NCBI RefSeq assembly: GCF_048403405.1 | Contig: NZ_CP183129.1 | DNA length: 64,000 nt | Direction: 5' to 3' (one strand) | DNA from: Escherichia coli | GTDB lineage: Bacteria > Pseudomonadota > Gammaproteobacteria > Enterobacterales > Enterobacteriaceae | Shown: one piece after another, positions 8,513 through 16,393 of the stretch | Layout of the letters: the number at the start of each line of letters is the position of its first letter | Position numbering within the stretch: position 1 is the first letter of the stretch | Translations under genes and position numbers: made by a program | Notes under the pieces: model-generated | What the model was told of the DNA's origin: nothing | The model's input: only the letters and a program-made list of their open reading frames with translations | Databases searched by the model: none

Positions 8513-8535
8513 AATCATCATTCAGGTATCAGGAA

Positions 8536-8660
8536 GAGTTAAGGGTACAAGGGGTACTCGATGGCGGTCTATATTTCACGACTAACGCCATTTCAAGGAA
8601 GAAGTGTGGTGGGTGGTTTCGAATGAGGGCTGGTGTTTTGGTACGTGGCACGCCACTGCA
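8536..8660 (+). pseudogene. possible remnant of a P4-type tyrosine integrase N-terminus immediately 3' of tRNA ileY
   Basis: Translation LRVQGVLDGGLYFTTNAISRKKCGGWFRMRAG loosely resembles the integrase arm-binding N-terminal motif (..DGxGLyL.....W.FRYR..); no intact int ORF follows. Confidence 0.3.
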
Positions 8661-9268
8661 ATGTATTTATCCATCAGTACTCATTCAAAAGTACCTGGAA
8701 AAAATGCCCGCTATGCCAAGCGGGCAAATTGCTTACATGTGGAATTAAGTAATTAACGATAAAGCCAGAGTATTATCATTTATCATGCCTCTTCATTTAA
8801 TCAGGTTAATTACTCAAATCACTGAACTATTCTCTGTTCGCTCACTGATGATAAGTGAAGTGTCACAACCACGATTTGTATGTGGACCAATGCTGTAGAG
8901 TAAGGATGAAATGTCTCTGCCACGCCTTAAACATCTACTACTGACTAGAACCGCCGTCGAATGCAGAAGAGTCTTGTGAGCATTACAGGAGTCTGGCTTT
9001 GGTCATTAATCAACGCTATTTAGATATAAATTTCTAACACTCAAAAAACGATTCTCACGAATAAATTATAACGGGTGGTTTTTATCATACAGTGAAATAA
9101 CCTTTTGCTTATTAAATTTAACATTCTTGTGCTAAATTAATTAAAAGTACCATGTATAGCATATGAAGCTGTTAATGCCAGCAATTGTCTCAAATGAGCG
9201 ATTTTTTATAGTGACAAACAATAATAACATTAAAAATAGCCATGTAGACATTAACTGAGGAAAAGACA

Positions 9269-10723
9269 ATGTTAGTTAGTAAAAGCAACGAAATTAACAC
9301 TAGCACATTTATAAATAGTGGAAATTGTAATGAAAGAAAATCTTCTAAATCCATGGAGTTACTAGCTTATAGTATTATAAAATTAATTTGTAAAGAAGCT
9401 GCCTCAGGGACGTATAACGGTGCTCTTGAAATTTTACAAAAAATGATGTCTGAATGTAAATATCATGAAGGCAATGCTTTTGTCATTATGGGAGCCGGAG
9501 AACAATTAAAACGTATTAAATATGATGCTAATGAAAATAAATTAAAAGTATACAACGTACACTTTGATAATAATCAAGAGTTAGTTGCTGATGGTGAGCC
9601 TGACGTAGTATTTTTAAAAAAAACGGTGTGGGAAGACCTTCTCGTTAAACTAAAGCTGGAGAACAAAGAAAATGCGGTTTCTGAAATTAACCTGTCATCT
9701 AATAAAAATAATGTTGATCAGTTTATTGAATGCGCTAAGAGAAATGAACAGACCCTATTCGGCAATATAAGAAAAAGTGATTTTCATGTTGCTTCACTTC
9801 AGCCAGGTAGAACGCGTAGTGTTATTTCAGAAACGCCGCCAAATGACTGTATGGAATCACATAATTTATATGAAAACCACACAGATAAGGTTTCAACTGT
9901 AACTAAAAATTCTCAGCAAGTTAAAGGTCACTATGGAGATAAGTTGAAAGAAATGCAGTTGTTCCTCAACCAGATGAGCAATGCACTTCAACAGGATTCA
10001 TCTTTGTTAGAGTCAAAGGAACACACCATAGATATTCAAGAAAAAACGAATAAGTTTGTGCAGCATTTTCAGCGGGTATTATTTGATAAAAATGGAAGGT
10101 CATCAGAGTTTCTACTTAATTTTTATGAGTGTTGCTATAAGTTTTTACCAAGAGCGCAGCCTCAAGATAAAATCGATAGCTATAATTCAGCACTGCAAGC
10201 TTTTTCCATCTTTTGTTCATCTACGTTGACACATAATAATGTAGGGTTTAATTTCAAATTATTTCCAGAAGTCAAGCTGTCTGGAGGAGAGCTTGAAACG
10301 GTATTCAAATACAAAAATGGTAATTTTGTCTGGGAGATAGCCAGAATTAAAATTACTCTCCCAAAAGAAGAGGGTGGTTTATATAATTTACGTGGATTGG
10401 ATTTTAAGGGATGCTTCTTTTCTGGACAGAACTTCAGTAACTATGATATTCAATATGTGAACTGGGGAACGTCATTGTTTGATCTTGATACTCCATGTAT
10501 TTTTAATGCGCCTGCTTACAACAAGAGTAATGAAAAATCATTAGAACGCGTCAGCGAAAACGGTTTAAGTGGAGTCTTGTCTGATCGTAATAAAAAAATA
10601 AAACTAATCACGGGTGTGGCACCATTCGATGATATTTTATTTATGGATGATGACTTTGATGATAACTCCCCTGATGATGGTCCCGTTGAGAATAGTCCTG
10701 TTGTGAATAGTCCCCTTGTATGA
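9269..10723 (+). CDS. hypothetical protein (484 aa), AT-rich island cargo; no signal peptide; possible pentapeptide-like repeat segment; acidic C-terminal tail
   Basis: Long ORF with very low GC; N-terminus Ser/Thr/Asn-rich (MLVSKSNEINTSTFINSGNCNERKSSKS); segment LRGLDFKGCFFSGQNFSNYDIQYVNWGTSLFDLD; C-terminus DDDFDDNSPDDGPVENSPVVNSPLV. Family not recognised from memory. Confidence 0.6.
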   Translation: MLVSKSNEINTSTFINSGNCNERKSSKSMELLAYSIIKLICKEAASGTYNGALEILQKMMSECKYHEGNAFVIMGAGEQLKRIKYDANENKLKVYNVHFDNNQELVADGEPDVVFLKKTVWEDLLVKLKLENKENAVSEINLSSNKNNVDQFIECAKRNEQTLFGNIRKSDFHVASLQPGRTRSVISETPPNDCMESHNLYENHTDKVSTVTKNSQQVKGHYGDKLKEMQLFLNQMSNALQQDSSLLESKEHTIDIQEKTNKFVQHFQRVLFDKNGRSSEFLLNFYECCYKFLPRAQPQDKIDSYNSALQAFSIFCSSTLTHNNVGFNFKLFPEVKLSGGELETVFKYKNGNFVWEIARIKITLPKEEGGLYNLRGLDFKGCFFSGQNFSNYDIQYVNWGTSLFDLDTPCIFNAPAYNKSNEKSLERVSENGLSGVLSDRNKKIKLITGVAPFDDILFMDDDFDDNSPDDGPVENSPVVNSPLV

Positions 10724-16233: not shown

Positions 16234-16235
16234 CC

Positions 16236-16262
16236 ATCAACGAAAAAGCCCACATCTGTGGG
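16236..16262. terminator. rho-independent terminator between ypjA and ssrA (bidirectional hairpin)
   Basis: Hairpin agcccacatctgtgggct; on the minus strand it is followed by a T-run (ssrA precursor terminator). Confidence 0.6.
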
Positions 16263-16393
16263 CTTTCATATCACCAAGAGCCGCGGCTCCTTTGCGTATC
16301 CTTTTATGTCTCCTCACCGTCTGGTCGGTGTCTTGCTGAGACTTCTAACTTCCTGTTTTTGTTGGTGTTGTCCTTGCACCGTCCAATCATGAT

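Follow-up and report, generated by a model that had tools for sequence, protein, structure and literature searches.

Is the stretch between ileY and ssrA in E. coli an island assembled by mobile elements arriving again and again at both RNA genes, or is it something older? The question arises from a first-pass annotation of the 64,000-nucleotide stretch of E. coli DNA analysed here (the window), which held that everything from ileY to the 3′ end of ssrA looked non-core and that repeated integration and decay at the two genes had left an orphan protein and an adhesin behind. The interval from the gab operon to the tmRNA gene is a known variable stretch of E. coli, made up of ygaQ, ileY, ypjCB, pinH debris and ypjA. 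It is old, immobile DNA of horizontal origin, layered next to a genuine integration hotspot; it is already known and unremarkable, apart from a short conserved element, RNA-like in character, that lies behind ileY. The reading preferred here, with a probability of roughly 0.7, is that the glaH–ssrA interval is layered foreign DNA that built up beside the tmRNA gene and has since fossilised. Taken alone, this re-describes a known variable region at a textbook integration hotspot and adds little. The refinements may nonetheless be useful for pangenome annotation: the unit whose presence varies among strains includes ileY and ygaQ, the layers number two or more and differ in age, and the region is old, vertically inherited, not recently mobile, and eroding from the ssrA side.

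Composition and gene content

Base composition sets most of the interval apart from its surroundings. From 5488 to about 11500 the GC content is 33–40%, against 51.3 ± 3.3% in the other 1-kb windows of the 64 kb, which puts the AT-rich part 3.5–5.5 SD under the local mean. Codon usage follows the same pattern: GC3 is 0.29–0.30 in ygaQ and ypjCB versus 0.50–0.68 in flanking genes, and AUA makes up 12–28 of every 1,000 codons in genes of the island versus 0–3.6 in most flanking genes. The first-pass annotation had extended the atypical composition across ileY into ygaQ, and this extension was borne out. Its description of the whole ileY–ssrA segment as non-core-looking holds in part: the segment is accessory and mostly foreign in composition, but the last 2.5 kb of ypjA (13751–16233) is typical at 53% GC. 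The atypical base composition and codon usage of a genomic island are present over most of its length, though not in that portion.

The AT-rich coding sequence includes two intact genes. The first, an alpha-amylase-family gene resembling ygaQ, occupies 5625–7877 on the − strand on the far side of ileY, as had been described (750 aa, 38% GC, 28 AUA codons per 1,000). Its dN/dS relative to K-12 is 0.08, and it is under purifying selection. The second is what had been noted as an AT-rich orphan reading frame: ypjCB (DUF5507 + DUF5508), at 9269–10723 on the + strand (484 aa, 34% GC). YpjCB matches NCBIfam NF050179 over residues 1–484 with 962 bits (cutoff 650), and both Pfam domains match. It is an orphan confined to E. 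coli and Shigella, with highly variable, mosaic alleles; its dN/dS is 0.72–0.81 and its nucleotide identity to K-12 is 82.9%, versus about 95% for its neighbours. Searched by sequence, it had no match in the PDB; HMMER against 1.84 billion representatives found nothing beyond the YpjCB cluster itself, fragments, and a single repeat protein sharing a weak repeated motif; a search of genome contigs returned two contaminant-like contigs only; and an AlphaFold2 model built from a 23-sequence alignment had a mean pLDDT of 35 and was unusable. A 16-nt inverted pair (9231–9246 and 10752–10767) flanks ypjCB; as a rough calculation predicts about 0.8 pairs of this kind per 12 kb, it was set aside.

The corresponding segment of E. 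coli K-12 (ygaQ-ileY-ypjC/ypjB-pinH-ypjA) has the same gene content, order and orientation, down to the same Pin fragment and IS3 debris, with a nucleotide identity to the window of about 95% over its full length. The two differ in that ygaQ and ypjCB are both pseudogenes in K-12 and both intact in the window, and in that K-12 carries the CP4-57 prophage at ssrA; in the window, which is without CP4-57, ypjA abuts ssrA and the att site is empty. Synonymous divergence from K-12 is similar inside and outside the island (dS 0.19 for glaH, 0.16 for ygaQ, and 0.14 for each of ypjCB and ypjA). Because island dS is like that of the flanking core and the same debris is present in K-12, the island is old and vertically inherited. 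The earlier claim of repeated integration at ileY and ssrA finds no support in these two points, and the island is not a record of recent or repeated events.

The unit that varies within E. coli

Presence and absence were counted in 5,426 complete genomes, and presence is variable within the species for each part counted. ygaQ is found in 4,212 (78%), ileY in 3,151 (58%, so that it is missing in 42%), and full-length ypjA in 2,435 (45%). An empty junction, in which glaH is almost directly joined to ssrA, is found in 1,100 (20%); ST131 and O2:H1 strains, which belong to phylogroup B2, are among these. A blastn comparison of the window with MS 200-1 (L003) places the breakpoints at 5487/5488 and 16242/16243. 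The presence/absence unit therefore spans 5488–16242, or 10,755 bp, which the empty haplotype replaces with a 333-bp filler. The indel lies 150 bp from ssrA, off the att site.

This unit changes the role assigned to ileY. The tRNA gene had been proposed as an island boundary, but the empty haplotype lacks ygaQ and ileY together, and since the polymorphic unit is 5488–16242, ileY lies inside it. Alignment across genomes thus gives a mixed outcome for the original outline. Variable presence stands, and the segment that E. coli has and E. albertii lacks (~8835–16388, described below) nearly coincides with an ileY-to-ssrA island; the unit that is polymorphic in E. coli does not. IS-mediated truncations are also seen in other strains, and the integrases there always adjoin ssrA (PMC3032704).

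Layers of different age

Outgroup comparison used one E. albertii locus (L010), one from Salmonella and one from Citrobacter koseri. The latter two have neither ygaQ nor ileY beside glaH. In E. albertii the order is ssrA, ykgR/ykgM/ykgO, ileY, ygaQ, glaH, with the same relative orientation. By blastn of L010 against the window, homology ends at 8834 and restarts at 16389, a point 5 bp short of where ssrA ends (3′); the stretch between (~8835–16388) is an E. coli-specific layer, in whose place E. albertii has the three ykg genes. The layer thus borders the 3′ end of an RNA gene at ssrA and not at ileY, which is 320 bp away. Those 320 bp 3′ of ileY are contiguous old DNA that E. albertii also has, so the ileY att site was not the point of entry for the E. 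coli-specific layer. The ygaQ side tells of greater age. E. albertii has ygaQ at the same locus with a protein identity of merely 59–60% and saturated synonymous sites: between the two species ygaQ has a pS of 0.72 and a dN of 0.31, while flanking genes have a dS of 0.14–0.53 and a dN of about 0.01. By this divergence, the two copies are far older than the species split.

The preferred reading arranges these observations as follows. The oldest layer, furthest from ssrA, would comprise the AT-rich ygaQ, ileY and a structured block behind it, all common to E. albertii in very divergent versions. The E. coli-specific layer would comprise ypjCB, a Pin invertase gene wrecked by IS3 insertion and deletions, and ypjA. 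This second layer would have come in through integration directed to ssrA, its integrase and distal att site being lost afterwards; such an entry is suggested only by the position of the layer's boundary, exactly at the ssrA 3′ end. The block would since have passed down vertically in most lineages of E. coli and been lost by two routes: a single 10.76-kb deletion or replacement that removes 5488–16242 in about 20% of genomes, and IS-mediated deletions spreading inward from elements at ssrA. Together, two such routes would produce the gradient in retention from ygaQ through ileY to ypjA. Layout, boundaries, frequencies and divergence are observed directly, and other strains show both att sites in use; we infer the mode of entry of each layer, the direction of the empty-haplotype indel and any part that ileY plays in expression of the island genes.

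Three points count against the preferred reading. No integrase, att repeat or other direct trace of arrival was found for any layer; the empty-haplotype indel, with its 333-bp filler, is 150 bp away from ssrA; and, as the ygaQ copies far predate the species split, ygaQ may have been acquired independently in the two species. The direction of the indel could in that case be the reverse, with the empty haplotype as the ancestral state. The 10.76-kb block would have entered non-B2 lineages whole, and E. albertii would have received a related ygaQ–ileY module separately. With synonymous sites saturated between the species in ygaQ and not in its flanks, one insertion is not required, and identity between the two E. 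coli haplotypes falls from about 96% to 90% toward the indel, which points to two old haplotypes. An ancestral empty state nevertheless requires that insertion took place twice, independently, at one spot and in one orientation beside glaH. The block that it would bring in whole is also set 150 bp off the ssrA att site, has no terminal repeats, and holds two layers of unlike taxonomic depth. It is an unlikely history.

ileY, its attachment site and the remains of mobile elements

Repeated integration at both RNA genes, with ypjCB and ypjA as leftover cargo, makes a different demand: entrants should have used ileY. The gene itself is confirmed at 8437–8512 on the + strand, with a CAT anticodon and cloverleaf found by ARAGORN and Rfam and a tRNA-Ile annotated in the matching RefSeq record. 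It is a second, dispensable tRNA-Ile(CAU) gene, with 6 differences from ileX that leave pairs 6:67 and 28:42 intact; the ileX type is universal (5,423 of the 5,426 genomes). By similarity to ileX, C34 of the ileY product would be converted to lysidine by TilS and the tRNA charged with isoleucine. It may aid translation of the AUA-rich island genes, a role suggested by their codon usage. A spare AUA-decoding tRNA amid AUA-rich foreign genes, absent in 42% of genomes, bears on how strains translate rare codons.

As an attachment site ileY is real. Phage 186 and SpLE1-like elements use the ileX/ileY site (PMC3448106, PMC8767318). The attachment core comprises tRNA positions 30–76 (8466–8512 of the window), and the crossover falls at 8466/8467, i.e. 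from tRNA position 30, in six of the compared loci (L009, L012–L015 and L020). An integrase-bearing element sits at ileY in strain S1-CAM-01-C; L020 has a satellite-like element there with integrase, primase, major head protein and small terminase; and integrase-bearing elements at ileY are found in viral contigs as well. Moreover, ileY alleles vary mainly in the 3′ half, the part that integration would exchange. The window's allele differs from that of K-12 at 4 positions, including one compensatory 28:42 pair, and the allele at L018 pairs A28 with C42, a mismatch. The view of ileY and ssrA as integration hotspots was therefore correct for the species, both sites being occupied in other strains or viral contigs. 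In the window, by contrast with the occupied sites of phage 186 and SpLE1-like elements, the same tRNA has an empty core, and the DNA downstream is ancestral flank with no element DNA. ileY is best described as part of the old layer's cargo, and its near-identity to ileX made it a secondary attachment site.

The window was also searched for what an entrant at ileY would have left. An integrase N-terminal remnant had been proposed right after the tRNA, and this proposal found no support: the reading frame has no Pfam match at E ≤ 10, no PHROG match, and no tblastn match to three integrases of ssrA islands, and its integrase-like part coincides with insertions of 23 nt and 13 nt in E. albertii. 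An integrase at the tRNA-proximal end is thus lacking. Direct repeats of the ileY and ssrA 3′ ends, proposed as marks of att sites, were found nowhere in the 64-kb window (≤3 mismatches in 25–26 nt), and shorter seeds of both 3′ ends, at several lengths and offsets, gave no second copy there. A general repeat search gave ypjA-internal repeats and chance-level short pairs, none at the island boundaries, so that flanking att direct repeats are lacking too.

What does remain is debris within the E. coli-specific layer, where IS3 and Pin invertase fragments had been noted and are now confirmed. The IS3 remnant (10997–11082, +) consists of the left terminal 19 nt (10997–11015) fused to an internal 68 nt (11015–11082). 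It is 92.6% identical by blastn to IS3 copies of other strains, and tblastn matches 32 aa of OrfB (E 4e-6); it has neither the pair of terminal inverted repeats nor the intact orfAB of a complete element. Next to it lies a fragment of a serine DNA-invertase gene, pinH (11084–11251, +; phrog_125, E 8e-16), which covers profile positions 62–114 of 254, mid catalytic domain only. RefSeq describes it as an incomplete recombinase without N- and C-terminus, so it lacks the complete catalytic and C-terminal DNA-binding domains that a serine invertase has in one reading frame. These 56 aa are the sole recombinase trace in the island.

Repeated integration at both genes can thus point to a working att site at ileY, to elements there in S1-CAM-01-C and L020, and to the allele differences of its 3′ half. 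Against it, the att site in the window bears no trace of any entrant and is followed by 320 bp common to E. albertii, neither the integrase remnant nor the ileY 3′-end repeat was found, and the polymorphic unit contains ileY; it is quite improbable. That the interval is no island at all, and is ancestral AT-rich Escherichia core DNA varying through deletions only, is very improbable: within E. coli its dS equals that of flanking genes, gene order is conserved among K-12, O157 and MS 69-1, the strain of the window, and ygaQ is constrained, but the Salmonella and C. koseri loci compared lack it next to glaH, its E. coli-specific layer is missing from E. albertii, its GC content lies far below the local mean, billions of proteins include hardly any relatives of ypjCB and ygaQ, and it holds IS3 and invertase debris.

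ypjA and the ssrA side

At the other end of the layer, the large autotransporter adhesin that had been noticed is ypjA/ehaD (11659–16233, +; 1,524 aa), of the AIDA-I/Ag43 type, whose GC content rises from 45% over the first half to 53% over the final 2.5 kb. YpjA has the architecture of a type Va autotransporter: a C-terminal beta-barrel (TIGR01414, E 2e-96, residues 1126–1567) and a repeat-rich, beta-helical passenger with the TIGR04415 repeat in 13 stretches. Matches to Ag43 and AIDA-I are partial and under the equivalog cutoffs, and the RefSeq product name is YpjA/EhaD. A role in biofilm has been described for YpjA/EhaD (PMC9289746). Upstream lies a 39-aa reading frame annotated in RefSeq (11475–11594, +), and one of the same kind precedes the remnant of the ypjA paralogue ycgV.

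The tmRNA gene ssrA lies at 16394–16756 on the − strand, its 3′ end at 16394 as first placed and its att site empty. Between it and the polymorphic unit is a spacer of about 150 bp (16243–16393) that the empty haplotype retains and E. albertii lacks. Within the spacer a hairpin can be read from the sequence at 16248–16263 (GCCCAC-ATCT-GTGGGC, with a T5 run on the − strand); it is probably the ssrA terminator, although a terminator scan did not list it. In about half of the 5,426 genomes ssrA adjoins something besides ypjA or the empty junction, and in other genomes the ypjA-side flank retains an att repeat made up of 6–43 nt from the 3′ end of ssrA. Integrases adjoin ssrA in strains W, L2_E1649 and KKa014. 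The block in the window resembles known ssrA islands and prophages (CP4-57, WpLE1, and P2-like prophages of the Fels-2/SopE-phi type) in its site past the ssrA 3′ end, foreign composition, adhesin cargo and variable presence. Unlike them it has no integrase, att repeats or sign of mobility and is vertically inherited, and current ssrA elements insert between this block and ssrA.

A conserved structured block behind ileY

The one item at this locus that could lead to something new lies behind ileY. It is a 158-nt structured block, a candidate RNA element, at 8609–8766 on the + strand (seen in alignments A2–A6), which starts about 95 nt 3′ of ileY on the same strand. The predicted fold has a long hairpin (8611–8696), a GC hairpin (8705–8726) and an AU hairpin (8727–8754), with a fold z-score of −4.3 on the + strand versus −2.6 on the − strand. 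In 3,093 genomes the block occurs once, with an identity of at least 95%. The E. coli and E. albertii versions are about 89% identical, rising to about 97% over 8696–8766; this conservation equals that of the tRNA, within a module that is saturated at synonymous sites. In twelve stem pairs one side only changes, and all states but one stay paired on the + strand via G-U, whereas on the − strand the same changes give C-A mismatches. A metagenome scan gave 72 contigs, all of E. coli type or E. albertii type, and among them neither a third lineage nor both-sided compensatory changes. The block had no Rfam match, even at E ≤ 10, and no match in a phage collection; an sRNA linked to ileY was not found in the literature searched.

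These features raise the tentative idea, with the odds somewhat against it, that the block is a functional RNA tied to ileY, either derived from the 3′ trailer of the tRNA or paired with an antisense RNA of about 70 nt. No terminator-like site was found on the + strand between ileY and the block, and a terminator-like hairpin lies on the − strand at 8705–8726, where the antisense RNA, if transcribed from that strand, may end. 3′ETS-leuZ is an example of a regulatory RNA derived from a tRNA spacer. The likeness to RNAs of that kind would be one of layout, a structured block downstream of a tRNA on the same strand; no sequence or Rfam similarity was found for the block, and the comparison is an analogy only. 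If the block were such an RNA, the oldest layer of the island would be a tRNA-plus-RNA unit and more than plain cargo. A 41-codon reading frame within the block (8624–8749) was considered as a conserved protein and rejected: it is open in both species, but its changes between them are 10 non-synonymous versus 1 synonymous.

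Organization and presence of the glaH-ssrA interval

The interval between glaH and ssrA, a region that is already known and ordinary, is best read as foreign DNA stacked in layers beside ssrA: an old ygaQ-ileY layer sits at the far end, a ypjCB-pin-ypjA layer specific to E. coli adjoins it, and strain-specific elements, absent in the window, come nearest ssrA, the layering being followed by decay and deletion. The tRNA gene ileY would have arrived as cargo and come into use as a secondary attachment site afterwards. The first-pass annotation had proposed an island between ileY and ssrA, built by repeated integration and decay at both RNA genes; its observation was mostly right and its island reading right in spirit, but it went astray on the boundaries, the role of ileY, an integrase remnant and the implied recency.

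Over 12.1 kb (5400-17500) the window matches the chromosome of E. coli MS 69-1 at 100% identity. In RefSeq (locus coordinates minus 601 give window coordinates), the minus-strand genes gabT, gabD, lhgO and glaH are followed by an intact ygaQ locus of the alpha-amylase family (5625-7877, minus strand), the tRNA-Ile gene ileY (8437-8512, plus), the DUF5507 protein gene ypjCB (9269-10723, plus), an incomplete recombinase (11084-11251), a 39-aa ORF (11475-11594), ypjA/ehaD (11659-16233, plus), and ssrA (16394-16756, minus) and then smpB; ARAGORN and Rfam confirmed both RNA genes. Most features noticed from the sequence were recovered: the AT-rich orphan ORF encodes an intact YpjCB (962 bits in NCBIfam, where the cutoff is 650; Pfam DUF5507 and DUF5508), the Pin invertase fragment matches phrog_125 (E 8e-16, profile positions 62-114 of 254), the IS3 fragment joins 19 nt of the left end to 68 internal nt (92.6% identity), and ypjA, the large autotransporter adhesin, has the beta-barrel and passenger repeats. 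The supposed integrase N-terminal remnant after ileY is unsupported, with no hit in Pfam (even at E<=10) or PHROGs and none by tblastn, and the integrase-like part of that frame coincides with 23-nt and 13-nt insertions of E. albertii. The atypical composition holds for 5488-11500 (33-40% GC) and fails at the end of ypjA, whose first half has 45% and last 2.5 kb 53% GC (remaining window, 51.3 +/- 3.3% in 1-kb windows).

Presence varies widely across 5,426 complete E. coli genomes, which makes the interval accessory, as its non-core look had suggested. Any match to the ygaQ region is found in 4,212 genomes (78%), ileY with its downstream region in 3,151 (58%), ypjA over at least 80% of its length in 2,435 (45%), and ypjA contiguous with ssrA in the window arrangement in 1,385 (26%). 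A glaH-ssrA junction via a 333-bp filler and the 150 bp following ssrA occurs in 1,100 (20%); among the strains listed with it are ST131 and O2:H1, both of phylogroup B2. The breakpoints of the empty haplotype (5487/5488 and 16242/16243) define a presence/absence unit of 10,755 bp that includes ygaQ and ileY, so that ileY lies inside the unit rather than at its boundary. About half of the genomes have other DNA after the ssrA 3′ end, and inspected examples have an integrase directly beside ssrA and an IS3 or IS1 deletion inward into the block; the same type of deletion was reported in the E. coli W genome paper (PMC3032704). Such deletions, running inward from elements at ssrA, account for the drop in retention towards ssrA. 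The filler (19668-20000 of the MS 200-1 locus, L003) has no match in the window or the E. albertii locus and was found in E. coli only together with the empty junction.

Age and outgroups

The recency implied by the first reading does not hold. Synonymous divergence between MS 69-1 and K-12 is 0.16 in ygaQ and 0.14 in both ypjCB and ypjA, as against 0.19 in glaH, and overall identity is about 95% inside the block and outside alike. The Pin and IS3 debris is also present in K-12; decay therefore took place before these lineages diverged, and block and flanks were inherited together.

Outgroup comparison (one locus each of E. albertii, Salmonella and Citrobacter koseri) separates two layers. The E. 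albertii order is smpB, ssrA, ykgR, ykgM, ykgO, ileY, ygaQ, glaH, lhgO, gabD, with relative orientation as in the window; homology covers 1-5437 (93.7%), ygaQ (67%) and 8363-8834 around ileY (73.8%), and restarts at 16389, 5 bp off the ssrA 3′ end. These limits leave an E. coli-specific layer at about 8835-16388, near the interval first proposed. On one side it stops exactly at the ssrA 3′ end; its other limit lies 320 bp past ileY, so the layer did not enter via the ileY attachment site. The Salmonella and C. koseri loci have no ygaQ, ileY or RNA block beside glaH.

The ygaQ-ileY layer is the older one. YgaQ of E. albertii is only 59-60% identical to its E. coli homologue, and YgaQ clusters are species-specific (one E. 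coli/Shigella, the other E. albertii). Between the two ygaQ genes (L010, the E. albertii locus, 10001-12217) pS is 0.72 (saturated) and dN 0.31, whereas flanking genes have dS of 0.14-0.53 (adjacent glaH, lhgO and gabD, 0.14-0.32) and dN of about 0.01. The ygaQ-ileY modules of both species thus long predate the separation of the species; divergent versions may have been acquired or exchanged, or else the module evolves at a much higher rate than the DNA on either side. With modules of this age, the empty-haplotype indel is compatible with either direction. Identity between the two E. coli haplotypes falls from about 96% to 90% approaching the indel, a pattern expected if both haplotypes are old.

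Attachment sites and ileY

Both RNA genes are real attachment sites used in other strains, but the att repeats expected of them are missing here: the ssrA and ileY 3′ ends have no other copy in the 64-kb window, and no repeats were found at the block boundaries. The ypjA-side flank retains 15 nt of ssrA in K-12 and 43 nt in a P2-like lysogen. A tyrosine-integrase element sits at ileY in strain S1-CAM-01-C, and 5 of 10 IMG/VR contigs containing the ileY flank break at 8466/8467. One such contig (L020, 513-11405) holds an element of about 11 kb at ileY, with integrase, repressor, primase, major head protein and small terminase, that looks like a phage satellite. In the literature, phage 186 and SpLE1-like elements attach at ileY/ileX (PMC3448106, PMC8767318).

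Unusually for a tRNA, ileY has several alleles within the species (8437-8512; copies L005, L008, L016, L018, L021 and L022). Pair 28:42 is G-C in K-12, G-T in O157 and A-T in the window, pair 6:67 is T-A or T-G, and the L018 allele has a mismatch (A28 and C42). Differences fall mostly in the 3′ half (positions 30-76), the part that integrating elements would replace. Because 5,423 of 5,426 genomes have an ileX-type tRNA, ileY is a spare copy, and by inference it may aid expression of AUA-rich island genes (28, 12.4 and 12.5 AUA codons per 1,000; most flanking genes have 0-3.6).

ypjCB and a structured block

ypjCB is an orphan gene found only in E. coli and Shigella. The alleles are mosaics of segments with 76-89% within-species protein identity, dN/dS is 0.72-0.81 with dS the same as in neighbours, and K-12 and others have a 105-bp deletion at about 9892; the AlphaFold model (pLDDT 35) allowed no function to be assigned.

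About 95 nt downstream of ileY lies a structured and strongly conserved block of 158 nt (8609-8766, plus strand; possibly extending to about 8820). The E. coli and E. albertii versions share about 89% identity (8696-8766, about 97%) in surroundings near saturation, and the block is single-copy at ≥95% identity in 3,093 E. coli genomes. Fold z-scores are -4.3 on the plus and -2.6 on the minus strand. Variation at twelve stem pairs is one-sided, with 99.4-99.6% of cells paired on the plus strand, and the same changes disrupt pairs on the minus strand; no both-sided compensatory changes occur, since the data hold only two lineages. A terminator-like minus-strand hairpin with a T6 run (8705-8726) would allow an antisense reading of the block. 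The block has no Rfam match, and no paper on it was found.

Further observations

The debris and ypjA upstream region (10801-11600) is 98-99% identical between MS 69-1 and K-12 (flanks about 95%), and the 39-aa ORF recurs upstream of the remnant of the paralogue ycgV, by minE (L029); gene conversion or a regulatory leader common to both may be the explanation. A 16-nt inverted repeat (9231-9246/10752-10767, 15/16 complementary) encloses the ypjCB ORF beside the invertase fragment, at about chance level for 12 kb by rough calculation. A human gut metagenome contig (L024; 86-161, 4916-7390) has a gene for a distant homologue of YgaQ (35% identity), alongside a giant intimin-like adhesin and genes that are InvH-like and FidL/MarT-like, and has at its end a partial tRNA-Ile2 3′ half beside tRNA-Gln; a related island from a different enterobacterium is a possible reading.
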